Positions 3,438-64,000 of a stretch of DNA of 64,000 nucleotides are shown in pieces. Source of the stretch: Trichodelitschia bisporula (lineage: Eukaryota); the NCBI GenBank assembly GCA_010356995.1, contig ML996689.1, forward strand, positions 452,691 through 516,690. The letters are read 5' to 3'. The position numbers and the translations under genes were made by a program. Position 1 is the stretch's first letter, and every line of letters starts with the position of its first letter. The notes beneath the pieces were generated by a model. It saw nothing but the letters and a program-made list of their open reading frames with translations. It ran no database searches and was not told where the DNA came from.

Positions 3438-4935
3438 CTAAATCTGCTCCCCCTCCAAAATCGGCCTCGCCTCCTCCGTCCGCCACCAACTCACCCCCTC
3501 TTTCCCAGGGAACTCATACCGCGCCATACTCTCCGGGCGAATCTCAACCGAATACCCCGGCTGCGTCGGCGTAACAAAGCACCCCTCAACAACCCTTGCC
3601 GGATACAAAAAATGCTCATGCAAATGATCCACATACTCCAGCAAACTCTTCCGTCCACTAACGACCACATAATCAATCGTACTCAGATGCGCCGTGTACT
3701 CCGGGAGCCCGACGCCGCCGGAGTGCGGCACGACCTGCACGCCGAACTTCGCGGCAAGGATGAGCACGGCGAGGACTTCGTTGACCCCTCCTAGGCGGCA
3801 GGCGTCGACTTGGCACACGTCGATGGCGCCGGCTTGCATTAGTTGCTTGAAGATCACCCGGTTGTGGCACATTTCTCCCGTTGCGACGCCGATGCCGAGG
3901 GGTGCGAGCGCCTTCCGTACCGCGGCATGGCCGAGGATATCGTCTGGTGAGGTGGGTTCTTCGATGAACCACGGCTTGTAGGGCGCGAGGGCCGTCATCC
4001 ACTCGATAGCCTCGGGGACGGACCAGATCTGGGGCCTCAGTTAGCAGGACACCAACTCTAGGAGCCCGAGGGGGGCGCACCTGGTTCGCATCCACCATAA
4101 GCACATTCCCCTCATCATACCCGAGCACGCGCCTCGCAATCTCCAACCTCTCCTTATCCGCCTCCAAACTCGTCCCAACCTTCAACTTAAAATGGCGATA
4201 CCCCTCCGCCCTCGTCTCCCTCAACAACTGCTCCATCTTCTCCCGCCCATACCCAATCCACCCCGCACTCGTCGTATACGCCGGCACGCCCTTATCCGCC
4301 CCCACCTCTGCCAACCTCTCCTCCCGGCCCTCGCGCGCCTTTTCCAACAACGCGATCGCCTCGGCGGGCGTCACGGCGTCGACAATGTACCGGAAATCTA
4401 TGCACCGGACTACTTCCTCGGGCGTCATGTCGGCGACCAGGCGCCACACGGGCTTGCCCTCGGTCTTGGCCCATAAATCCCATAAGGCGTTTACGACCGC
4501 GCCGAGCGCGAGGTGCATGACGCCCTTCTCCGGGCCTATCCAGCGCAATTGACTGTCGGCGACGAGGTGCCGCCAAGTGGCCCCCATGTTCGCGGTTAGG
4601 CTCTCTAGCGTGCGGTTGGTGATCCGGTGGGCGAGGAGGGGGATGGCGGCGCAGACGAGTTCGTTGCCGCGGCCGATGGTGAAGGACTAAGGTGGGGTTA
4701 GGGGCAGTGGGGTGGAGGTGGGAAAGGGAGGAAGACACACCATCCCATGCCCCTCAAACTCCCCATCCGTCTCAAGCACACAATACGCAGCGCTATAATC
4801 CCCCGCCGCATTCATAGCGTCCGAGCCCGTTTTGTCGAGCGACGTCTGCGGCTGTTACTATCACCCCGCCACGCACTCCAACCCACGTACCGGAAACCGA
4901 ACATCGCGCGTCTTGACGCCTGTGATTGTGACCAT
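3438..4935 (-). CDS. lgd1: L-galactonate dehydratase / ENOSF1-like enolase superfamily enzyme (introns 4846-4890, 4687-4740, 4029-4080)
   Basis: Spliced protein MVTITGVKTRDVRFP-TSLDKTGSDAMN...FTIGRGNE...WIGPEKGV...FKLKVG...DANQ...WFIEEPTSPDD...GEM...DACRLGGVNE...PHSGGVGL. Confidence 0.92.
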
Positions 4936-5330
4936 GGCTGCTCAGGGAGGGACGGTTCGATCAGCAGTGGGACACGAAGCGGAATACAAAGCGGGGTACA
5001 AAGAGGCAGCAGCCAATGGCCCAAACAGAGCCGCAAAGCTCTTTCTTATGTCCCCCCACCTCCACCCCTACCCCGCGCCCTGCCGAGCGGCCGAGGGGTC
5101 GCGGTCCGCGGGGTAGGGTAAGGCTCGGCCCGTGATAGGTGGAAGATTTAAGCTCTGGATGCAGGGCCGGGTGGATGCGGCGGTGGCCGGCGGCGGGGTG
5201 GCTGTGCGGGAGGCACGAGGCTGGAAGGGGTAGCTTATTCCCTCGTGGGTTATCGTTGGTCGAGGGCGCGGGGTACGGCCTGCGGGCGAGAGCGGACGGT
5301 CTAGATGCGGCTGACGTTGGAGGGGGTGTA

Positions 5331-5526
5331 GATATCACGTGTAGCGTAGAGGCTGGATATTGCTCCCTGTCTCGCGGGTAACGTCTTGCGAGCTCGAACG
5401 CGCGGTGATGAAGATATCACGTGTGACTGTGCATATTGCTTCATATCGCGCGGGTAACGTCCACTACATAGCCGGCATCGTGAAGGTGTGTATTGCTTCC
5501 CTTTCTTGCAGGTAACCCATTACCCG
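5331..5526. repeat. Three imperfect ~78-bp tandem units upstream of lgd1 containing CACGTG and CGGGTAA motifs
   Basis: GATATCACGTGT...ATATTGCT...CGCGGGTAACGTC at 5331-5385 and 5413-5461; partial third unit at 5491-5517. Confidence 0.7.
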
Positions 5527-5721
5527 GCATCGCGTCCAGCAAGCACGGTACGACGCAACTCAGCCCAGACATCACAGAACAGCCGTAAAACTCCCCTATC
5601 CGCCCAAAAAAGCACCCAAACGCCGCCGCAGAAAACTCCCAAACTTCAACCCCGCCGCCAAAGAAAAAGGAGAAAGCCACCTCATCCCCACCTCATAATC
5701 CCCACCTCATAACCCCCCCCA

Positions 5722-6630
5722 TCATCTCCCCCCAACCCTCTTCCCCCACCACCCCCTCCTCCCCATCCCCATCCCCACACTCCCAATCCCAATCCCCCTA
5801 ACCTGCGGCGCCGGTCCCCCCATCCCAAGGATAACCTCGCCCCTCAACCCCCTCAATCCCCTGCTCCTGTTCCCCGCGCCCTCAGCCCGCATCTGCCCCA
5901 TCATGAAGTCCCACCCCTGACTCTCATAGTACATGGCCGTATCCGGATCCCGCATGCACATCTCGCGGTACAGGCGCTGAGCCCTCGCCCGTTGCGCCGC
6001 CGCCTCGCCGACAAGCGCGGGGTCCTCAAGCGGGCTCGCGGGCGCCGCAGCGGGGGAAACGGCAGGCGCCGCCACACCACCCGCACCTGCGCCACCCGTC
6101 GCCACGGCCGGACCCGCTCCCGACCCCGCTCTCGCCGTCGTCGCCGGCGCTGCTTCCACCACCGGCGCCTGCACCAAACTTGTCGCACTCAAACTGCCCC
6201 CACTGTTCCCATAAATACCCCCCACAAGCCCGCTCAGCAACTCGGCCGCCGCACTCCCACCCACGCGCTCCATGCGCCGGCGGGCCACATTCTCATACTG
6301 CCTGCTGTGGCCCGAGCGCGCGGTGGTCCAGTGCGGGATGTGATACGAGTGGAGGGCGAGGGGGTCGCGGGAGGGGGAGGAGCGGAGGGGGGTAAACCCT
6401 GGAGCGAATTCCTGGGAGGGGAGGCCGCGGGGAGTGGGGTTGCTTCGGTTGCGGTTATGGCTGGTGGTTGGGGGGAGGAGGGGCGCGTGCAGCGTGTAGG
6501 GCGGGGCTTCGGAGTGGTAGCTGGGTGCGGAGGAGATTATGGAGGCGGTTTCGGAGGGGTCGTCGGGGTTGCGGGGGGGTGTGTAGACGGGGAGGGGTTC
6601 GGTGGTGGGGGTTTCGAGGGTGAAAGGCAT
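5722..6630 (-). CDS. Hypothetical fungal protein (302 aa, PPxY motif, Ala/Gly-rich)
   Basis: Intronless ORF with ATG start; contains SIISSAPSYHSEAPPY and LEDPALVGEAAA...YYESQGWDFM blocks that look protein-like. Confidence 0.7.
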   Translation of the reverse strand: MPFTLETPTTEPLPVYTPPRNPDDPSETASIISSAPSYHSEAPPYTLHAPLLPPTTSHNRNRSNPTPRGLPSQEFAPGFTPLRSSPSRDPLALHSYHIPHWTTARSGHSRQYENVARRRMERVGGSAAAELLSGLVGGIYGNSGGSLSATSLVQAPVVEAAPATTARAGSGAGPAVATGGAGAGGVAAPAVSPAAAPASPLEDPALVGEAAAQRARAQRLYREMCMRDPDTAMYYESQGWDFMMGQMRAEGAGNRSRGLRGLRGEVILGMGGPAPQVRGIGIGSVGMGMGRRGWWGKRVGGR

Positions 6631-18360: not shown

Positions 18361-18432
18361 TAGCTGAAGGTGGTTTCGATCCACCGTCCTCCGGGTTATG
18401 AGCCCGGCGCGCTTCCACTGCGCCATTCAGCT
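18361..18432 (-). tRNA. tRNA-iMet (CAT), initiator
   Basis: Reverse complement AGCTGAATGGCGCAGTGGAAGCGCGCCGGGCTCATAACCCGGAGGACGGTGGATCGAAACCACCTTCAGCTA: A1:U72 pair, GGG/CCC anticodon stem, GATCGAAA T-loop, downstream T run. Confidence 0.96.
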
Positions 18433-54245: not shown

Positions 54246-54906
54246 CCACTTTGGGGGGGTTTTCGTAGCCTCCCGGGAGGTGAGCCTTTTGCTATTTTGA
54301 AGGTTGTAGGCCTTCTGTGGAGCTTTTGCATTGCCTATTTTGTTCATGCTAGTGGTGGTTGGGATGGAAGACTGATAACACTGTCTTCGTTTTGCCGCCT
54401 CATATCCCATCCCAACGCCTGTTCGAGCAAACCGTGGGAGCTGCCAGTGGAATCATACACCCTGAGCATGATCTGATCCCGCTCCCAACTTGTCAACACC
54501 AAACATGCCCCACTGGAGAACTCAACGCCCCAAATCCCGCACCGAAACCGCCTCTCGCCGGAGCGTCCAAGCCAAATCCCGCACCTCCGGCGAAACCCCG
54601 TTCGCCAACCATACCGGTACCCACCAGCCCATCTCCTCCATCCCTTCCCTCAACCACCACCCTTCCCTCTCCCCCTTAGCGCCCCGCACTGCTCCCGCCT
54701 TCATCACCACGGCTTCATGCTCAACACCGCCCCTCATCTCTGCAGCTCCCCCCGCCCCCGTGGCCGATGTTGCGGTACACTCCACGGCACCCGCATTCGT
54801 GTGATGAGCGCACTCGCACAGCGTCTGAGCACGAGGGTGGAGGCCTTGATTGGACGAGCAGGCCTTCCCTTTGTTGTGCATCATCAACTATTTTGCAAAG
54901 TCTAGC

Positions 54907-54923
54907 ACATACGGCCATAGGTC
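54907..54923 (+). rRNA. 5S rRNA gene, 5' fragment (nt 1-17), split by insertion
   Basis: ACATACGGCCATAGGTC matches the Pezizomycotina 5S 5' end and completes helices I and II with the 3' fragment at 60441-60541. Confidence 0.8.
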
Positions 54924-57900
54924 GCAGACATATACCTGTGTCCGCGGGAAAATAGCCGCCAAATCCGGCGGTTTGTAACGGCGTTTCTGGCGTCAGATTT
55001 CCCCAATGCAGGCTTCCAAGAAATCGGGCGCTTAGAGTGTTCAGTATCCCTGTTGATGGCTAACAAATTCCAGCGGACGAATTATATGAATTAGAAAATC
55101 TAAAAAGCGGCTTACCTCGCATCGAGAATCAGCCCTCCGCCACTTTTTCTAGCTCCCGCCTCGTGCCCCTCTTGGGTCTCTCCATCGCCGCCGCCTCAAT
55201 GCGTCCTCCCGCATGCCGTTTTTTTGTCCGCCCGCCCAGGTGATTTCCGATAGCCCATCTGACGAGGGGAGAGCTGGGCGCGGTTTATTCGCAAAGGAAG
55301 AGGTAGTAGAATGGGGTACTTGCGAGGCCGGTAATGCGATGGATACGACCACGCGGGGCCGCTTGATGGACGGGAGGAGCCGCTAGGCTAGTTCGAGGGG
55401 AAGCTAGGCGCTGTCTATCACTTCAACCTTTTGCCATTATTAGTCTGTTGACGACAAGCTGTGGAGTTGTGGATGGACAATCGTTTCTCCTCGATGGGGA
55501 TGATGCCTTTCCTTCACAGTTGGAATGGCCGCACGCTCCCGCGGGCTCAATTGTTCCACGGTACTGTATGTTTCTCGAGTCCCGCGCTGACGACACGATA
55601 CAACATGACTGAGACGATGTCGTCTGCTCAACTCCAATCGAGCCTTCAATCCAGCACCAGGACGCTTGCTAACACCCATCTCACACATTATCCGGCCACC
55701 TCTTCCACAGAATCAACTACGTATCTCCTCCATCAGAACAGTCTGTATGCCCCCTCTGTCCCTCACTGCGCTGCCAAACTCCCGCCCAAAACCATGACCG
55801 CCACTCCGGCATCCTCCCGAGCCCGTTTATGCTTGAGCCCTGGTCAGTCTCGATATCCCGTACAGCATCTACGACGCGGGCATAGACGACGCAAGCAGCG
55901 TAGGCGGTGCACATGGATGAACAACCGGGTATCTCCTCCAGCGAAGTCTTCGTCTATGAACTGATCAGTTGGAAGGAGAACTTGATGCCCCGTGGCATGT
56001 GGCTGTGTCTCCTCCAATCTCGTCCTCCCCTCCGCGCCCGACAGCTCACAGCCTCATTCTTGGCATTCTGCCCCGCAGGTGATCTCAGCTGGAAGCCCCA
56101 AAGCCTCGCCTTCAACCTCGAGTTGCACTCCTGCATTTTCACAAGTCCGCAATTTCTTGACTAGAATCATTATTTCCAAAATGCCACCTGCAAAGCGGGT
56201 CCAGACACGGGGCCACTTCTGTGCCTCTTCCGGCCTTTCACCACCTTCCTCACCTGTTGCTGGCGAGACCACCACGCCTGCCCCCATTAGCAGTGTCGGC
56301 TAGACATCATCTTTACCACTTGCCCCTCAGAGAGCCACCAACAGTGGACCAACCCGCCGACTTCGTCATGAAGACTACACAATAAGATGGATATGCGCTC
56401 TCCCGATGGAACTTGCGGCAGCTCAAGAGATGCTAGATGAGGAACATCAGAGTCTCCCTCAGAATGCGGCTGATTCCAACGTCTATGTGCTTGGCCGCCT
56501 CGGTGGACACAATGTCGTAATTGCGTGCCTACCCGTAGGCCAAATGGGAACCAATGCGGCAGCCTCGGTTGCTGCCCAGATGCAGTTGACATTCAACTCT
56601 GTCCGGCTCGGCCTGATGGTGGGCATCGGAGGTGGTGTGCCAAGTACAGCTGATGTACGGCTTGGGGATGTCGTCGTCAGTCAACCGTTCAAGGATCACG
56701 GCGGAGTAGTGCAGTACGACTTCGGCAAGACGACATCAGACAAGTTTGAACGGACTGGATCCCTCAATTCTCCCCCGCAGGTCTTCCTGAAGGCGATGGC
56801 AAGCCTAAAGGCCAATAACCTCCGAGAGAGAGTCGGGTTCTTACACTCTCTTTTGAAGCTCGCCCAGTACCCAAGATTTGCACGGGACAAAGCCGGGCCA
56901 GATGATTTATACCACGATACCTACAATCATGAGGGAGGACCTGACGACTGCCAGAAGTGCCGGAAAGAGTACGTGGTACGACGCCAGCCGCGCGGCGAGG
57001 ATGTTGTTGTCCATTACGGAACCATAGCCTCCGGGAACCAAGTCATGCGGGATGCGACGATAAGAGACAAACTCAGCACGGAGCTTGGAGGCGTACTCTG
57101 CTTTGAGATGGAGGCAGCGGGGCTCATGAACAGTTTTCCGTGCCTTGTTGTGCGGGGAATATGCGACTACTTGGACTCGCATAAGAGCAAGAGCTGGCAG
57201 CCGTACGCGGCGGGGACGGCGGCAGCGTACGCTAAAGAGCTTGTGTTGTTGGTTCCGCCGGCCAAAGTCGAGACACCAGAAGATCCACCCGCGCCGGCAA
57301 TGCTCCTAAACTTGCCCAGGGCCGCAGACACACCATCGAAGCCACACGAGCGGAAAAAAGCGCCTTGCCTGATTGGTACCCGGGTCGAACTTCTCAGAGA
57401 GATCTACGCCTGGGCTTACGGGGAGAACTCGCCAAATATTTTTTGGTTAAGTGGTTTAGCTGGTACCGGCAAGTCCACTGTGGCTCAAACTGTGGCCGCC
57501 GAATGTTTTCAGAAGGGAAGGCTTGGAGCCAGCTTCTTCTTCTCGCGAAGTGGCGCAGATGTCCGGCATGCCGGCAAGTTCGTGACAAGCATCGCAGCGC
57601 AACTTGCAGACAACGTGCCGGGGGCAAAGCGGTCTCTCTACGAAGCACTGAAGGAGCGAGATACCATTACTGAAGAACCTATCCGCAGTCAGTGGCATCA
57701 TCTCATCCTCGGTCCCATGTCGAAGCTCGAAGGCGACACCTCTGCTCCGTACATCCTGGTAATCGATGCCCTTGACGAATGCGAGGGCGAGGACGACATA
57801 TGGGAAATTCTGGATCTCTTTCGGTGGCTGAAGAAAACCCGGCTCCGGCTGTTTTTAACGAGTAGACCTGAAGTGCCAATCCGGTCTCCTTTGTCCGGAA

Positions 57901-60440
57901 TGCCAACAAGCGAGCACTTGGACTTTTTGCTCCACAGCATTGAGAAGTCGACTGTTGACAACGATATCCGCTTCTTCCTACGGCACGAGTTCGAAGGTCT
58001 AGCCCGGGGACGCTCTTTTGGGAAAGATTGGCCAGGTGAGCAAGTCATCGACTCTCTTGTCCGGAATGCCAGTGGCCTGTTCATCTGGGCTGAAACCGCA
58101 TGCCGCTTTGTTCGACAAGGAAAAGCATTCGCTCCCGAGAAACTAAGCTTGATCCTCGACCGAAGCCATAGTACTGTGAAAGCGCCAGAGAAGCATCTCG
58201 ACGAGATCTACGCGACTGTTCTTCGCCAATCCTTTACCGACTATGAAGACGATGATGCAGAAAAGCTGCGATCCACATTGAAGGAACTGCTTGGAAGCAT
58301 CGTGATCCTGTTTGATCCGCTTTCCATCCGGTCCTTGAGCAAGCTACTCGGCCAGAATATGGGTCGGGCACTGGATGATCTTCACGCCATTTTGGACATT
58401 CCAAAGGAATCAGGTGACGCACTCCGTTTACATCACCCTTCGTTTCGTGACTTCCTTCTCAATCCAGGGAGAAGCGGGAAAACAGGTATCTGGGTTGATG
58501 AAGAGGAGGCGCATCGAGCCCTTGCCACGAAATGCATACTGGTCATGTCTGACTTCCTTACGCAGGACATGCTTGGAATAGGTCGGCCTGGAGTACTCAA
58601 GACCGAGGTCGACAGTCATGAGGTTGAAGGCTCCCTCCATCCTGAGAAGCAGTATGCATGCCTCTACTGGATACAGCATCTTCATAAGAGTGGATCTCAG
58701 CTCAACGATGACGGTAAAGTTCATCAGTTCCTGAAGAAGCATCTCCTTCATTGGCTTGGGGCGCTTGGATGGATGCAGAAGGTTTCCGAAGGGTTCCATG
58801 CCATCGTGTCTTTGGAGTCCATGATTTCGGTAAGCTGGACGTAAAGCAGAATGGGGATACTTGGCTGATACTTGGCTCAGGCGCAGAGGTGTCCCCGACT
58901 GTCGGGGTTTGTTCATGACATGAAACGATTTGTCCTCTACAACCGGTCAGCCATCGAACTAGCTCCCTTGCAGACATATTGCAGTGCGCTGGTATTTTCC
59001 CCGGCAGCAAGTCTTGTAAAAAGGCAGTTTCAAAGCCAAAAACATCTGTGGATGCCCCGACTACCGCAGGTTAGGGACAACTGGGATGCCTTGCTGGATA
59101 CGCTCGAGGGCCATTCGGATTCGGTCAGGGCCGTGGCCTTTTCGCCGGACGGCAAGCAGCTGGTGTCGGCATCGGATGACGGGACGGTCAGGCTGTGGGA
59201 CGCCGGCTCGGGAAAGGCGCTGCAGACGCAAGCAGTTGCCAGGTTCCGGATCGGATCCTCCACGTTTCAGAATTGTCGGGGAATGGATGACCATAGGTGC
59301 GGAAAAATGTCTTTGGCTTCCAGTCGAGTATCGCAATCCGCTACATGTCGCTGTTCACGGAAGCAAGGTTGGCTTGGGGTATTCGTCTGGTCGAGTACTG
59401 TGCAATTTCTCTTAACCGCCTCCCCACCCACCTCCGTTGCGGTCTTAGCCCTTTATACCTCTTTGAGAGTGAAAGTGGCAAAGGATTACAAATGGGAATG
59501 GTACGGCTTTGAAATCAAGCACTCCATTAGCAGATGGTAACAGTGGCGTACAAAAATGTCGCCAGATCAGTGAAGTAATGGCTTCAATGCAATGGGTATC
59601 TGGAAACATCTGGAATTAACCATTCCTTCAGTCCACAGAGAAGGTATGATGGAATGTAGTGGCTGTGTTCAATGTTTTCCACTCCCAGTTCTTGCGTCGA
59701 GCAGAGCGTTGATGAAGACGGGACCAGGCCCTAGCACAACCTGGTCAAAGCCAGAAAAGGGAGACAGTTGCGTACACCATGTCCTCTCAATAGCCTCCAT
59801 TGATAAAGACCTGAAGCTGTATTAGGATGCTAGGCGGATAATCCTATGTTTGTCATCTGAGACCCTACACAGAGAGCCCGATTCTTGAGCGCCACCAACT
59901 CCACCCGCGCCATCAACTTCACCCGTGTCACCAACCCACTCGCCACCTGCGCCACTGCCTCAGCTCGTCTTCCCTTCCCTCACCACGGTACAACTCCACA
60001 CTTAGCCCCCTAGCCACCCCACTCGGAGAATCGGAGTGCGGGGTAGTGTTGCCTGAGTCACGTTGGGGCCGAGCTGACACTGCGAAGACGGAATATGGGT
60101 CCTAACAGGCGCCCCCGCTTAATTGAGATATGACCCTTCCGATACTCATGATACTTCGCTTGCAGGTCCAACCGGGCCGGTTCTGGAGAGGGGAGCCCGG
60201 CGACAGGCCGAAGACGGGGCGATTTAAGGGAGGCGCTGTGGTTCAATGCGGAGGGCAGGACGAGCACAAGTTACTGCCCATCTAAAATCACTTAGCGCGT
60301 CAGTAATTTCCAATTGAAGGAAATCTGGTGCTGGATTTAGCGGCAAGACGGACGAAAGTATTGGCTAGCAAGGATGACAATGCATAGGTTAGTCCAGATT
60401 GGGCACTTTTCTAATTGAGCTTAGGATACGGACACAAGTC
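54924..60440 (+). mobile_element. Captain-less (non-autonomous/derelict) Starship-like element inserted in 5S rDNA, carrying an NLR gene
   Basis: Bounded by the two halves of a 5S gene, with a GTC direct repeat at both junctions. Inverted motifs ACCTGTGTCCG (54934-54944) and CGGACACAAGT (60429-60439). Left end is homologous to that of the captain-bearing element at 60894. Confidence 0.78.
56181..59415 (+). pseudogene. PNP_UDP phosphorylase-NACHT-WD40 NLR (HET-E-like), disrupted (intron 58830-58880)
   Basis: DYTIRWICALPMELAAA, GLMVGIGGG, CFEMEAAGL, RGICDY; Walker A GLAGTGKS; Walker B LVIDALDEC; HPSFRDFL; one WD40 repeat. In-frame TAG at 56301. The conserved tail (LWLPVEYR...GRV) is out of frame after ~59230. 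Confidence 0.88.
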
Positions 60441-60541
60441 AAAGAGAACATCAGCCCCAGTCTGCTCACTGAAGTTAAGCTTTGAACCGGTTGACTAGTA
60501 GTTGCGTAGGTGACCAGCAGCGAATCCCAACTGCTATATGT
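60441..60541 (+). rRNA. 5S rRNA gene, 3' fragment (nt 18-118, degenerate) followed by T-rich Pol III terminator
   Basis: AAAGAGAAC...GCTCACTGAAGTTAAGCTTTGAACCGG...TAGTAGTTGCGTAGGTGACCAGCAGCGAATCCCAACTGCTATATGT followed by TTTT. Confidence 0.88.
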
Positions 60542-60876
60542 TTTCTGTCTTTTTTACACCCCGGAAGCTTGCTGATCGGCTCGTTCAGCGGGAGGAGCTC
60601 CGAAGCTTAATGTAAGCCGACACTCTGGCCGAAGGACCAACCGAAAAAGTCATAGCTGTCCCGTCCGCAAAATCAGCCAGGCGAGGTGGCCATGATAATT
60701 TTTCAGGTGGCCCGTGAAGCTTTCTGCTCAGCCGGCTGATCGAGGGAGATGCTCCGCAGCTTAACGCATGTCCCCTATTCCAACCCAAGAACGCTCTCGC
60801 TCGGAGAGCTAACACTTCTTTTGACAATGATTTTGTTTTTTCGCTAGTTATTAGTTAACCGGCAAGACAGTCCACC

Positions 60877-60893
60877 ACATACGGCCATAGGTC
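60877..60893 (+). rRNA. Second 5S rRNA 5' fragment (nt 1-17), interrupted at the same position
   Basis: Identical ACATACGGCCATAGGTC; AT-rich TTATTAGTTAA about 25 nt upstream. Confidence 0.75.
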
Positions 60894-61164
60894 GGAGAAT
60901 GTATCTATGGTCGCGTCCCAATTTGGTAAAACTCTGAATTTGCACTGCCGTCATATATCCTTTGTCATTAGGCTTGGCGAATATCGTCCAATTAAAGTTG
61001 CCATTATTAAGCGCGCGACTACGTAAGGGAATTGTCGATTCTTCTTTTCAACTTCTCAAATTTCCAGGACGACGAATAAGGCGTCCTTAGATGCCTTCGG
61101 TAGGGGCGTTGTTAGATGGTCCTTAGGAGGGCTAGGAGGTAAACTAGTTAATGCTCTGACTTAA

Positions 61165-62008
61165 ATATCCCCGAAGACCACTGCAGGTTCAGAAGTCAAC
61201 CTGAGCCGAACCCACCATCAATGGAAAGAGTTCTGTGAAGCTGCACGAACCTCCGATATTCCTAATGGAGATGCACTTTTCAGTGACCCTGAAAAGTGTA
61301 TGGCGGAGGCTGACCCTGAGCTGGTTATGTTGTTCCTGAAATGGACTTTGGACACGCGAAAGGGAATCCGAAAAGAGATAACTATTAACGTCTACTATGA
61401 CCGGTGGCACGCCGCTCGAAGACAAATACCGCATCACCGAGTGTGGAGCCTTGAGGACAGGAGGCGTGTCAATTCAGTAAGAGACTCATCTTGATAAACT
61501 CGAAACTAATTTTGTATAGTTCATCTCTTTGGATCTAGCCTCTGAGCATGGACTCAGTAGAGAACGGCAGCCGAAGCCTGTCCTAAGCTTTGCCGATATG
61601 GCCATCCTTCTCAACCACCTTTGGAAATGGGACAGACTGCAGTATACCAACGAGACGTTACGAGTCCAAGTCACCTTGGTTATACTGATTTCGATGGCTA
61701 CGACAACAAGGCCAGCGGCATTGCTAGAGCCGGTGTACGCCAAACAAGGTCATGGGGAACTACCCAAAGTTCTTCGTTATGAGCATGTCAGGGTCTTCTT
61801 AGTCCGCGATTCCGAACGGATGAGACAGAAGCTGGTTCTGGAAATCAAATCTTGTCTTTCACAAAGGATACGAGCGAAATCCCAGATCGTAAGTAACTTC
61901 AGTTTGGCATTTGCATGCTAATAATCTTCTACAAGAACCGCCCACATTCTTACCGAGACAGTGGAGCTCATCTTTGATCCCACAATACCCCTGCTGTTTC
62001 TCGCATTC
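61165..62008 (+). pseudogene. DUF3435 tyrosine recombinase (Starship captain), degraded and truncated (introns 61477-61519, 61889-61936)
   Basis: W.EFC...LFLKW...HGLSRERQPKPVLSFADMAILLNHLWKWD...LRVQVTL...TTRPAALL...LRYEHVRVFLVR; +1 frameshift near 61848 to LVFHKGY; then ELIFDPTIPLLFLAF. Upstream TAA at 61162; cut by an LTR at 62009. Confidence 0.8.
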
Positions 62009-63064
62009 TGTTAAAATGAAGTGTGAACTTGACTGAGTTGCTTGATCGACTAGCAGTGGGAAGTGAGCTGACTATATACCTCGCCAGGAAACGACCCCTC
62101 TCTCCCGGCTCCACTCCAGCCACCCCAGGTTGCCGCCACAAATTCAGCACTCCCACTCAAACCGAGGTGGATGGAAGTGCACCAACAGTGAGCTCCCACT
62201 GCCTCCCATGTCCCGGGATGGAATAAACTCCAAGAGAGACAAAAACAAGAAGGGGTTGGCAGTGTCTGGCCTCATTAAAACCTCAAAAACCAGGTGGGAA
62301 AAACGAGGGAAAAGAATGCCAGAAGCGTTTACCCATTGCTTTCCCGCCCAAAGCGACACTCCAGCCCCAAGGCTTTCCTGAAAACCAGAAAGCGATCCTT
62401 TGGCAAGGTATTGGTGAGTCCGTCAGCGATCTGCTCCTTCGTCGAGATGTACCGCATGTCGATGACCCCCTCCGCCTGCTTCTCGCGTACAAAGTGGTGC
62501 TGGATGGCGATGTGCTTCGATCTGGCGTGAAATTGGGGGTTCTTTGCCAGCGAGATGGCGCCTTGGTTGTCTCCGAAGATGACAGTGGCTGCTGGCTCAT
62601 CGTGTTTGAGAAGCTCCTTGAGTAGGTTGCGCAACCAGACAGCTTCCTTTGTTGCTTGCGTCTGCCCCATGTATTCCGCTTCGCATGATGACAACGCAAC
62701 AACACTCTGGCGCTTCGATGACCAGCTCACTGCTCCACTGCCGAGGTTGAAGATGTATCTGGCCGTTGATCGCCTCGTGGATGAATCCCCAGCCCAGTCA
62801 GAGTCGGTGTAACCAGCCAGAGCCTCCAGCGATCCGCGGTACACAAGTTCCACCTCCATGGTGCCCCGAAGGTAGCGAACGATCCTCTTGACCGCCGTTT
62901 CGTGCTGGGGTCCGGGGTTCGCGAGGAAGCGACTGCAGATGGAGACAGCGTATGCGATGTCGGGTCTAGTACCAAGCATGGCGTACATGAGGCAACCGAT
63001 CGCTTTGGCGTACCAGGTCTTGAGGCTCTGAGGGGCCTGGAAGTCATCGGGTGCTGGCACGATC
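62009..63064 (-). mobile_element. Ty1/Copia retrotransposon 3' part: RT end/RNase H (62329-63060), PPT (62160-62150), 3' LTR (62149-62009)
   Basis: IGCLMYAMLGTRPDIAYAV, GYTDSDWAGD, WSSKRQSVVALSSCEAEY, DNQGAI, RSKHIAIQHHFVRE, ADGLT. TTGAGTGGGAG is followed by TGCTGAA...TTTAACA, a 141-bp LTR with TATATA. Confidence 0.9.
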
Positions 63065-64000
63065 TGTTAAAAGGGGATGTGTGGTCAATGGAAACTGTTG
63101 AAAGGGTGATGCGTGATCAACAGAAACGTCACTGCATCACAAGTTGGACCGAAGGTCTGTCCATGAACAAGTTGCTTAATTGTCAAAGAGGTGGGGATCC
63201 CGAGTCTACTTATACCCGAGCCCTGTGGCTGAACCTGGGTAAGGCTGAACACAGCCACCGCTTTCCAACACTCCCCCCTCAGACGAAACCCAGTGAAAAG
63301 GCGAGGGGTACGCTCACAAAGACACGAAGCTCCCATATGGACAGACGGCCAGGCCTCGTTAAAACCCTCTGTGAGGGAAAGAGTGCCTGGACTTACACAA
63401 GGAGGGGCGGCAGATAGATCGATCCTCATGGTTCCCTTCTCCCCCTCACCTGGTGCGAGCCCATTCAAGACCCAATGCCTCCCTGAACTGTTCGAAGCGA
63501 TCCTTTGGCAAGGCTTTTGTAATAATAATAACTTGATTACGCCCAGGCTTGTTTTAGCTAGCCGTATGGTCGGGTCTCACCACTTTAGGAGTGGGTTTGA
63601 CCAATTTCTTTGGTTCTACACGGCAAAAACCCTCCCTGGAAGGGTTGAGGAAAAGCCCTGGAAGTCGTCCTTTGGAGAGGAGCATTTGAGCCCCACGCCT
63701 TTAACATATGTTTATCGTCTTTTCTTTGCACCATTCTTGTGTGTCCCAAGCGAGAACTTGGCTGCACGCCGAGAAACTGAGAAACACTCCATATCCCAAT
63801 TAAACCCCAAAAACGCCGAACGCCTACAGCAACGCAGATCCCGTAATTCTAGATCATGTGACCGAAAGAGAGAAGGAGAGGAAGGAAATTGAAGAATACC
63901 AGGTGTTGTCCGGAGGCCGCCAGGGGGGGGGGGGCGGCGGCTCCTCTTTGGGGGAGATCCGGTTCCTGGTAGCAAGTGTGGTGTTGAATCGTTGAATCCG
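63065..64000. mobile_element. Probable second LTR element nested in the Copia RT
   Basis: Copia homology stops abruptly at 63064 and the new sequence begins TGTTAAAA, the same 8-mer as the LTR terminus at 62009. Confidence 0.5.

Follow-up and report, generated by a model that had tools for sequence, protein, structure and literature searches.

A probable captain-less insertion of Starship type in a 5S rRNA gene of Trichodelitschia bisporula

Two parts of one 5S rRNA gene stand about 5.5 kb apart in Trichodelitschia bisporula, with an NLR gene between them, within the window analysed here (the whole stretch of DNA under study, 64 kb of contig ML996689.1), and the question raised by this locus is what kind of element separates them and by what means it could have arrived. 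The intervening DNA, insert A, is probably a captain-less, site-specific insertion of Starship type belonging to a multi-copy family. It reads as a small recombinase-less relative of Starships because it splits a 5S gene, carries no recombinase, and lies beside another 5S gene that is split in the same way by the captain-bearing end of a second element, B (Table 1).

Table 1. Features of the split 5S genes and of the two elements, in window positions.
Feature	Position	Strand	Basis
5S rRNA nt 1-17, left stub, ACATACGGCCATAGGTC; 5S-like letters perhaps to 54928	54907..54923	+	
Insert A, 5,517 bp, probable captain-less Starship-type element	54924..60440	+	sequence, captain searches, depth
Left terminal motif of A, GCAGACATATACCTGTGTCCGCG	54924..54946	+	16/23 aligned columns common with left end of B
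NLR gene (PNP_UDP_1, NPHP3_N/NACHT, one WD40 repeat)	56181..59415	+	Pfam, tblastn with paralogue P0002, translations
Right end of A, GGATACGGACACAAGTC	60424..60440	+	12/17 like 5S nt 1-17
5S rRNA nt 18-118, then T-run	60441..60541	+	sequence, Rfam
Spacer between two 5S genes, 335 bp	60542..60876	+	~22x single-copy depth at 60743
Second 5S stub; 5S-like letters to 60898	60877..60893	+	same 17 nt as left stub
Element B, 5' end of captain-bearing Starship, leaves window	60894..64000	+	ORFs, Pfam, tblastn
DUF3435 captain gene of B	61165..62008	+	Pfam, tblastn with 13 captains, P0185 vs P0187
LTR retrotransposon inside captain of B	62009..63066	-	joints 55726>62009, 62146>55722

The preliminary description of this locus had placed 5S nt 1-17 to the left of the insert and nt 18-118 to its right, and both the coordinates and the sequence agree with this division. 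The better pairing it had claimed for the rejoined gene is likewise found, the stub and 60441-60541 together forming 8/9 helix I pairs in a scripted count against 6/9 in the DNA as it stands, and the minimum free energy being -27.1 kcal/mol for the rejoined 5S against -21.5 unjoined; only the stub at 54907-54923 restores helix I in full. Rfam (RF00001) scored 60424-60542 as a full-length 5S with helices I-V, at 48.6 bits against a gathering score of 38, because the right end of A mimics 5S nt 1-17, and in that alignment the 17 nt actually preceding 60441 form four non-standard pairs, three of them in helix I and the fourth in helix II. The 17-nt stub is not a chance match: a search of the whole window that allowed up to three mismatches returned exactly two copies, the identical ones at 54907 and 60877, where the expected count was 0.07 and two matches arose in 0 of 100 shuffles. 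How intact 5S genes begin, a point on which the earlier reading had been made to depend, is shown by an X2 contig in which the stub and GGAGA continue into 60448 and beyond across three intervening letters; this uninterrupted variant opens with the stub sequence, ACATACGG..., and not with GGATACGG....

Both boundaries of the insert had been described as visible, which stands insofar as both fall inside one 5S gene, whereas the precise point of insertion may lie anywhere from nt 17 to about nt 22. GCAGA and GGAGA, which follow the two stubs, resemble 5S nt 18-22 (AAAGA, GGAGA) and so produce a direct repeat of approximately GTCNNAGA (6/8), present at the left boundary of A as GTCGCAGA and at the right as GTCAAAGA; as this repeat is imperfect, the boundaries are precise to about 5-8 nt only. 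A wider 5S-like repeat of the insert amounts to 12/17, or to 15/22 by hand count. The left ends of A and B are identical in 16 of 23 terminal columns, with no similarity past about 30 nt in the comparison of these ends, and one contig of X2 has a third variant of the terminal motif, AGAGACTGCATCTACGTCCGCGT, after a stub. A weak candidate terminal inverted repeat (ACCTGTGTCCG versus ACTTGTGTCCG, 10/11, offset 13 and 4 nt from the ends) has a score reached by 18 of 500 shuffles; such repeats are described in many Starships, not in all (PMC9156397, PMC11162782).

The insert was claimed to lack a captain, and the tblastn and DUF3435 searches proposed at the time bear this out, the profile search recovering DUF3435 in 0 of 30 stop-to-stop ORFs of A at E<=1 and 13 captain proteins giving no tblastn match in 54924-60440 at E<=10. 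It does carry one NLR, the sole gene recognisable by Pfam (PNP_UDP_1 1.4e-11, NPHP3_N 6.3e-31, WD40 2.1e-14), though the gene has decayed: an in-frame TAG stands at 56301-56303 (codon 41, where the paralogues P0182 and P0183 have Q), the C-terminal tail beyond the intron at 58830-58880 is out of frame from 59230, the WD40 array has collapsed to one repeat, and there is no single open frame. This PNP_UDP-NACHT-WD40 gene is probably a pseudogene. A DUF3435 captain as first 5' gene, by which Starships are recognised, is present in B and not in A, and A at 5,517 bp falls below the smallest Starship reported, 15,020 bp, in a survey that drops elements shorter than 15 kb (PMC11162782).

The link to Starships is firmer than the preliminary description knew, since it had overlooked the second stub, where the neighbouring 5S gene is cut alike by a DUF3435 element with a similar end. 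Both genes, which minus A would stand 453 bp apart from start to start, are cut at the same position, nt 17 to about nt 22, near where the Starship Voyager is reported to insert. The captain, which is the first gene of B, begins about 270 bp beyond the second stub, with exons at approximately 61165-61476, 61520-61889, and 61937-62008 and a Pfam DUF3435 match (E=7e-10) to profile positions 3-85 of 418. It is damaged by one extra base near 61849, which shifts the frame, and is cut at 62009 by the LTR retrotransposon, whose 141-bp LTR (TGT...CA) occupies 62009-62149 and whose contig depth is 480-1100x. The ORF at 62329-63066, which matches no Pfam family at E<=0.01, is presumably the C-terminus of a copia-like pol, a name given from its motifs.

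Relatives of the captain fragment occur elsewhere in the species, tribis1_534970 (P0186) being 85% identical to it and tribis1_522931 (P0123) 58% identical over 57 aa; the published classification places these two in fam01, to which the Phoenix captain belongs (PMC11162782 Table S4). Judged through the 85%-identical paralogue, sequence comparison suggests that the captain of B belongs on the Phoenix side (fam01) rather than with Voyager (fam10). The 10 captain gene models examined from this group in the species are all 79-215 aa long, and no working captain is in evidence among them.

The sequence of insert A is multi-copy, and A is not a lone case. On depth summed over contigs of the public runs X1 and X2, a rough measure of copy number only, it stands at 11-175 times single copy; in X1 the unique flank has a depth of 189-198 and positions in A reach 2,152-33,203 (for example 18,448 in 12 contigs at 55504, 26,199 at 56083, and 6,135 at 60402). 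Contigs may drop rare variants, and the window's own letters are missing from those of X1 and X2 at many positions of A. Unique contigs of the two runs stop at 54929 and 54933, so that the junction of stub and left end is common to at least one other place. A contig of a further run, X4, covers 54904-55224, that is, the stub and the left end of A with 320 bp of captain-less arm, followed by 46 unmatched letters, and the stretch 55409-56641 is tiled by overlapping pieces from other copies, which places the 5' arm next to the NLR there as well. With the junction recurring and the arm tiled, the captain-less layout is itself repeated. The contigs of the runs contain no empty-site allele and no second complete copy of A with other flanks, and the joint 54923>60441 is not among the 15 joints listed of 27.

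Copy number is no proof that A moved independently, since the spacer and B are also multi-copy and NLR genes neighbour captain fragments elsewhere; mobilisation in trans, which the preliminary description had offered, is on the same grounds not borne out as stated. Within the reading of A as a captain-less Starship-type insertion, a non-autonomous family moved in trans is a tentative possibility, a composite with B is rather unlikely, and a one-off internal deletion is more doubtful again; A may travel with B as a composite, or both may merely share clustered 5S genes.

A distinct explanation, likewise unlikely, makes A the left module of a composite that comprises A, the rebuilt 5S, the spacer, the second stub, and B and is copied whole, having arisen from two insertions into neighbouring 5S genes, with copying through the left end of A and a distant right end of B, or by segmental duplication. 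The depth of the spacer in X1 (4,269 at 60743, about 22x) is like that of the right end of A (4,255-6,135) and near that of B (1,992-2,883, 10-15x), which is consistent with joint copying, but the 5' arm of A at 38-138x is 2-6 times deeper than spacer or B, so A-type sequence also exists without either. Captain fragments and A-type NLR models lie 2-4 accession numbers apart at two or three loci besides this one: KAF2399618 shares a contig with KAF2399620, KAF2403400 and KAF2403396 come from the contig that holds the window, and for KAF2400559 and KAF2400563 the records give contigs of different size. Gene neighbourhood is here deduced from accession order, and the right end of B lies beyond the window. 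Nested and tandem growth of Starships has been described (PMC9156397), but separate insertions into the members of a 5S cluster would produce this arrangement with no composite involved, such clusters being a reported Starship hotspot in A. fumigatus (10.1101/2024.06.28.601215).

It is improbable that A was a full-size captain-bearing Starship that underwent one internal deletion after landing, with the other copies representing the cargo ends of full-size relatives. Degraded captain-less Starships are known (PMC9156397) and this copy is decaying anyway, as its stop codon, frameshift, and collapsed WD40 array attest, but the junction of stub and left end recurs in X4 with its captain-less arm, and the pieces of other copies tile that arm into the NLR. 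The idea that 60424-60541 is a whole 5S gene or pseudogene that has simply diverged, with the two 17-nt pieces as unrelated truncated fragments and ordinary host sequence with an NLR between them, can draw on the end-to-end Rfam alignment and on dispersed or truncated 5S pseudogenes, which Rooney and Ward in 2005 reportedly found common in filamentous fungi, but is hardly credible, as the five differences from the stub cluster in the first 17 nt, four of them disrupting pairs of helix I or II, the stubs are identical, stop at one and the same nucleotide and each lead into a related 23-nt motif, a captain gene follows one of them, and the single-copy flank ends exactly at the stub.

On the preferred reading of A as a captain-less Starship-type insertion, a captain from a related element would recombine the joined right and left ends of A with the 5S site, acting in trans, or, were A and B to move together as a composite, in cis. 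The copy of the 5S 5' end at the right end of A would then be an imperfect direct repeat of the kind expected when a recombinase joins an element's site to a similar target, and insertion would leave a chimeric 5S gene that keeps its internal promoter region and has a weakened helix I. Element B would be an ordinary Starship 5' end with its captain first, and A, if it ever moved as a 5.5-kb unit, would have kept both ends and one decaying cargo gene. The more specific proposal, that A-type elements form a 5-6 kb non-autonomous Starship family of tens of copies, reduced to both recombination ends and a single NLR gene, that borrows fam01 captains and lands at 5S nt 17-22, is put forward tentatively. 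Such a family would be the first parasite of Starships known from nature that resembles MITEs or CIMEs, and would indicate that ends of less than about 1.3 kb on the left and about 1 kb on the right are enough for movement.

The main survey gives eight recombinase hits and no elements for this species, represented by a single genome (PMC11162782). Starships are detected through a captain and large insertions, with those under 15 kb discarded, so small captain-less derivatives would escape. If such elements exist and move, the cis-acting ends of Starships could be narrowed down to a few hundred bases, and the action of captains in trans, so far seen only in an engineered test, would be demonstrated in nature. 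They would also offer a way for individual genes, NLRs among them, to be amplified and spread into 5S genes; no description of such a non-autonomous Starship family was found in the literature searched. Read conservatively, the locus resolves the boundaries of a 5S-targeting element on the Phoenix side of the tree to nucleotide level and lends another case to the repeated evolution of 5S targeting already reported.

MITEs and the att-flanked bacterial CIMEs, which lie beside an ICE, have kept their recombination sites, lost the enzyme, and rely on a relative, with which such derivatives can move after side-by-side integration. By analogy, A as proposed would have recombination sites without an enzyme, though the enzymes and hosts of MITEs and CIMEs are others. 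miniHephaestus (engineered) and mini-Sanctuary (natural) are small derivatives that like A retain element edges, the mini-Sanctuary elements keeping their family's direct repeat (10.1101/2024.03.04.583430); a captain acted in trans on a frameshifted mini-element (PMC10104507), but miniHephaestus was built with a captain gene inside, whereas A has none. Degraded Starships ('Derelict') and captain-less Starship-like regions resemble A in carrying cargo such as NLRs, which Starships commonly do, and no DUF3435 gene, and differ, as described, in having no clean boundaries or target-site repeats, where A has both boundaries (PMC9156397). The Phoenix family (fam01) holds the two paralogues of B's captain but is reported to have the repeat TTTACA and to lie mostly in AT-rich DNA, while the target here is 5S, the site of 23% of curated Starship insertions, whose direct repeats measure 6-16 bp (PMC11162782). 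Voyager of Macrophomina phaseolina, with a captain of fam10 against fam01 for the paralogue of B's captain, is about 91 kb long, has its captain first and a 12-bp repeat, GCCCTGTATTCT, in contrast to the 5.5 kb, missing captain, and imperfect 5S nt 1-22 repeat of A; yet it too inserts in 5S, 20 bp from the 5' start where A enters at nt 17 to about 22, leaves a chimeric, weakened 5S gene, and carries NLR cargo (PMC9156397, Table S14).

One 5S rRNA gene in the window is split by an insert, here called A, with its first 17 nt left as a stub on one side and the remainder on the other (see the table), as the preliminary description had claimed. The claim is correct, since, in a scripted comparison with the DNA as it stands, joining the stub to the remainder raises the helix I pairs from 6 to 8 of 9 and lowers the minimum free energy from -21.5 to -27.1 kcal/mol. 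Rfam reports a single 5S in the window; in its alignment, helix I has three non-standard pairs and helix II has one at its start, each of them involving the 17 nt directly before 60441, GGATACGGACACAAGTC. Of 5S nt 1-17, the right end of A reproduces 12, so that Rfam and any routine annotation will read 60424-60542 as a whole 5S gene, and chimeras of this kind may swell the tally of 'intact' 5S genes in genomes rich in Starships. A second copy of the stub, overlooked in that description, was returned by a repeat search, with similar neighbouring letters on both sides and sequence beyond it that is not 5S. Searching the 64 kb for the 17-mer with up to three mismatches gave exactly these two matches, the expected count being 0.07, and two matches occurred in 0 of 100 shuffles. 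The 8 nt directly 5' of both 5S starts are alike, perhaps as a conserved promoter element close to the start, the DNA farther upstream being dissimilar. By eye, a GAAGCTT/GCAGCTT-centred motif occurs three or four times in the spacer that ends at the second stub; the spacer stands at about 22 times single-copy depth, which may mean that 5S genes in T. bisporula, a Dothideomycete, are clustered with a conserved spacer. Left of 54907 lies ordinary core genome, with genes for an AFG1 ATPase, galactose-1-phosphate uridylyltransferase, a short-chain dehydrogenase, an HD-domain protein, HAUS6, and an NDT80/PhoG family protein; a tRNA gene among these core genes is unrelated to the split 5S.

Features of the split 5S gene, insert A, the spacer and element B, by window position, with summed contig depth in sequencing run X1
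Feature	Position	Detail	X1 depth	Contigs
tRNA gene	18361-18432	minus strand, 66.2 bits		
8 nt before first 5S start	54899-54906	AGTCTAGC		
First stub	54907-54923	17 nt, ACATACGGCCATAGGTC		
Insert A	54924-60440	5,517 bp; both boundaries within one 5S gene		
A	55296		7,250	11
A	55504		18,448	12
A	56083		26,199	at least 13
NLR start	56181	MPPAK...		
TAG in NLR	56301-56303			
A	56984		2,152	3
A	58540		17,492	10
NLR intron	58830-58880	normal		
WD40 region	58873-59339		165,588	
NLR C-terminal tail	from 59230	...WLPVEYR...SGRV..., in another frame		
A, right end	60389		4,255	
A, right end	60402		6,135	
Rfam 5S match	60424-60542	48.6 bits (gathering score 38)		
Rest of 5S gene	60441-60541	T-run at its end		
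Spacer	60542-60876	335 bp		
Spacer	60743		4,269	
8 nt before second 5S start	60869-60876	AGTCCACC		
Second stub	60877-60893			
B captain exons	~61165-61476, 61520-61889, 61937-62008	GT...AG introns between; read from sequence		
B captain ORF	61520-61921	DUF3435, E=7e-10, profile positions 3-85 of 418		
B	61656		2,883	
B	61849		1,992	
LTR	62009-62149	141 bp, TGT...CA		

The second stub is followed by the 5' end of a Starship, here called B, whose left end shares 16 of 23 columns with that of A (GGAGA-ATGTATCTATGGTCGCG against GCAGACATATACCTGTGTCCGCG in A), the similarity being gone past about 30 nt. A third variant of this motif follows a stub in a contig of X2, which with X1 is one of two public sequencing runs containing the window's unique flank. 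The letters after the stubs, GCAGA and GGAGA, resemble 5S nt 18-22, which read AAAGA here and GGAGA in an uninterrupted 5S variant on an X2 contig, so the crossover falls somewhere between nt 17 and about nt 22. The direct repeat at the junctions of A is roughly GTCNNAGA, and a short inverted repeat near its ends (10 of 11 positions) is weak evidence, its score being reached by 18 of 500 shuffles. Scans of metagenomes for the left junction of A (stub, NNAGA, gap, CGCG) and for its right junction (a 24-mer) each returned 0 stretches. Readings of A as a Helitron, a hAT or Mutator element, or a retroelement were rejected, as its ends do not follow the pattern TC...CTRR flanked by A and T, its target-site duplication is limited to the 5S-like repeat, and none of 30 ORFs matches a transposase or reverse transcriptase.

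A had been described as captain-less and as carrying one NLR, and both statements hold. None of its 30 stop-to-stop ORFs (at least 40 aa) matches DUF3435, the tyrosine recombinase or captain that is the first gene of Starship transposons, at E<=1, and tblastn with 13 captain proteins gives no match inside A at E<=10. The sole gene recognised is the NLR, an immune-receptor-like gene with PNP_UDP_1 (1.4e-11), NPHP3_N/NACHT (6.3e-31), and one WD40 repeat (2.1e-14), its start being placed by comparison with paralogues. Judged against these, the copy is probably a pseudogene, given an in-frame TAG at a position occupied by Q in P0182 and P0183, a WD40 array collapsed to one repeat, and a conserved C-terminal tail that is out of frame; the public gene model P0001 sidesteps the TAG through an alternative start. 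Joints in the WD40 region, the deepest of the stretch, lead back 126 nt or skip 76-108 nt, so the number of 42-aa repeats differs among copies, the backward joints denoting longer arrays elsewhere. A 170-aa ORF at 55452-55964 was rejected as a gene and treated as non-coding, being low-complexity, S/T/R-rich, and without a Pfam match.

With the same 13 captain proteins, alignments are restricted to 61165-62011, in B. The captain of B is dead in the window's copy, owing to an extra base and to an LTR that cuts it. The base, near 61849, is lacking in every other copy aligned (depths without it 1,162 and 830, of 1,992 in total) and takes the frame away from the conserved ...LEINLIFHKGYERNPRP reading, which paralogue P0185 keeps, and at 62009 the gene is broken off by the LTR, present at 480-1100 times single-copy depth in X1 and X2. 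Past the LTR lies a pol C-terminus on the minus strand, which we take from its motifs to be copia-like and for which a Pfam search found no family at E<=0.01. The 141-bp unit is probably either a solo LTR or the LTR belonging to a copia-like retrotransposon of very high abundance. Joints 55726>62009 and 62146>55722 place it in another A copy too, at 55722-55726, where 5 bp are duplicated. When longer relatives of the captain fragment were sought, 0 of 365 candidate proteins scored, and an exhaustive protein search with the fragment gave 56 matches, the full-length ones just 28-41% identical.

Copy number was taken as summed contig depth relative to the unique flank, which has zero differences in X1 and X2, both from one sample, and depths of 189-198 and 393-418, respectively. 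The unique contigs of these runs end at 54929 and 54933, a few bases inside A, and summed depth jumps from the left edge of A through to the end of the window, reaching about 11-140 times single copy in A (up to about 175 at 58689), 22-32 at its right end, and 10-15 in B. At many positions of A the window's own letter is in no contig and, as contigs drop rare variants, the window's copy is a diverged minority member. Pieces from other A copies overlap across 55409-56641, which puts the non-coding left arm next to the NLR at other places as well. RIP was rejected, the differences between window and contigs being mostly transitions without directional bias (in X1, 201 T>C plus A>G and 191 C>T plus G>A). 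Cruder but independent support for the repeats comes from the annotated proteome, with at least 10 NLR models at least 79% identical to that of A (P0001, P0002, a P0003 cluster of four, a P0004 cluster of three, and P0014); it also holds 10 captain fragments of 79-215 aa. Two runs labelled as other organisms, X3 and X4 (shares 0.07 and 0.05), reach a depth of 1-45 per bin over A, B, and the LTR, and about 108 at the WD40 repeat, with the unique flank almost uncovered; one X4 contig carries 54904-55224, the stub and left end of A, followed by 46 unmatched letters. Over 54900-64000, roughly 2-17% of letters differ per listed piece. These pieces could represent the same or a related fungus at low level, library carry-over, or shared mobile DNA, and we do not read them as horizontal transfer; either of the first two would show only high-copy repeats.

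We consider it likely that A is a Starship-type insertion that lacks a captain and comes from a family that is multi-copy and now decaying. To that extent its description as a captain-less mini-Starship stands, but copy number is no proof that A moves alone, since the spacer and B are repeated as well. Spread in trans as a 5.5-kb unit is a tentative proposal, and the left arm of A exceeds the spacer and B in depth by a factor of 2-6, a hint that A-type sequence is also present where they are not. That A instead spread together with B in one composite, grown by side-by-side insertion into neighbouring 5S genes, seems rather unlikely: it agrees with the repetition of spacer and B and with the closeness, at other loci, of A-type NLR models to captain fragments (2-4 accession numbers apart, accession order being taken as gene order), but not with the greater depth of the left arm. 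These neighbours are KAF2399620 and KAF2399618 on one 1.0-Mb contig, KAF2403396 and KAF2403400 elsewhere on the window's own contig, and KAF2400563 and KAF2400559, for whose contigs the reported sizes disagree. Clustered 5S genes, each cluster gathering both kinds of element, fit this neighbourhood as the composite does, and such a pattern has been reported from a 5S-rich Starship hotspot in Aspergillus fumigatus (10.1101/2024.06.28.601215). An origin of A by deletion is improbable, as A belongs to a repeated family whose recurring captain-less layout argues against a private deletion at the window's locus.

That some Starship families target 5S and often carry NLRs, as the preliminary description stated, is in line with PMC11162782 and PMC9156397: 5S makes up 23% of curated insertion sites, with at least five distinct sites in the gene and direct repeats of 6-16 bp (PMC11162782), and conserved cargo includes NLRs (PMC9156397). 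The crossover of A, 5S nt 17 to about 22, compares with an insertion point 20 bp from the 5S 5' start in Voyager (PMC9156397). Table S4 of the main survey places tribis1_534970 and tribis1_522931 in fam01, with the Phoenix captain, and Voyager in fam10 (PMC11162782); the first of these is P0186, 85% identical to the captain fragment of B, so that B is probably a Phoenix-family element targeting a Voyager-like site. That survey requires a captain and drops elements below 15 kb, and for T. bisporula it gives 8 recombinase hits, 3 counted captains, and 0 elements (PMC11162782). A captain can work in trans on an engineered mini-element that carries a frameshift (PMC10104507), and natural small 'mini-Sanctuary' elements are known (10.1101/2024.03.04.583430). 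A literature search that covered supplements incompletely found no natural captain-less or non-autonomous Starship with both boundaries, the nearest cases being the engineered miniHephaestus and mini-Sanctuary, beside unrelated uses of the words. Set against the formal definition of a Starship, A departs from it in captain and size and agrees with it in boundaries, target, and cargo.
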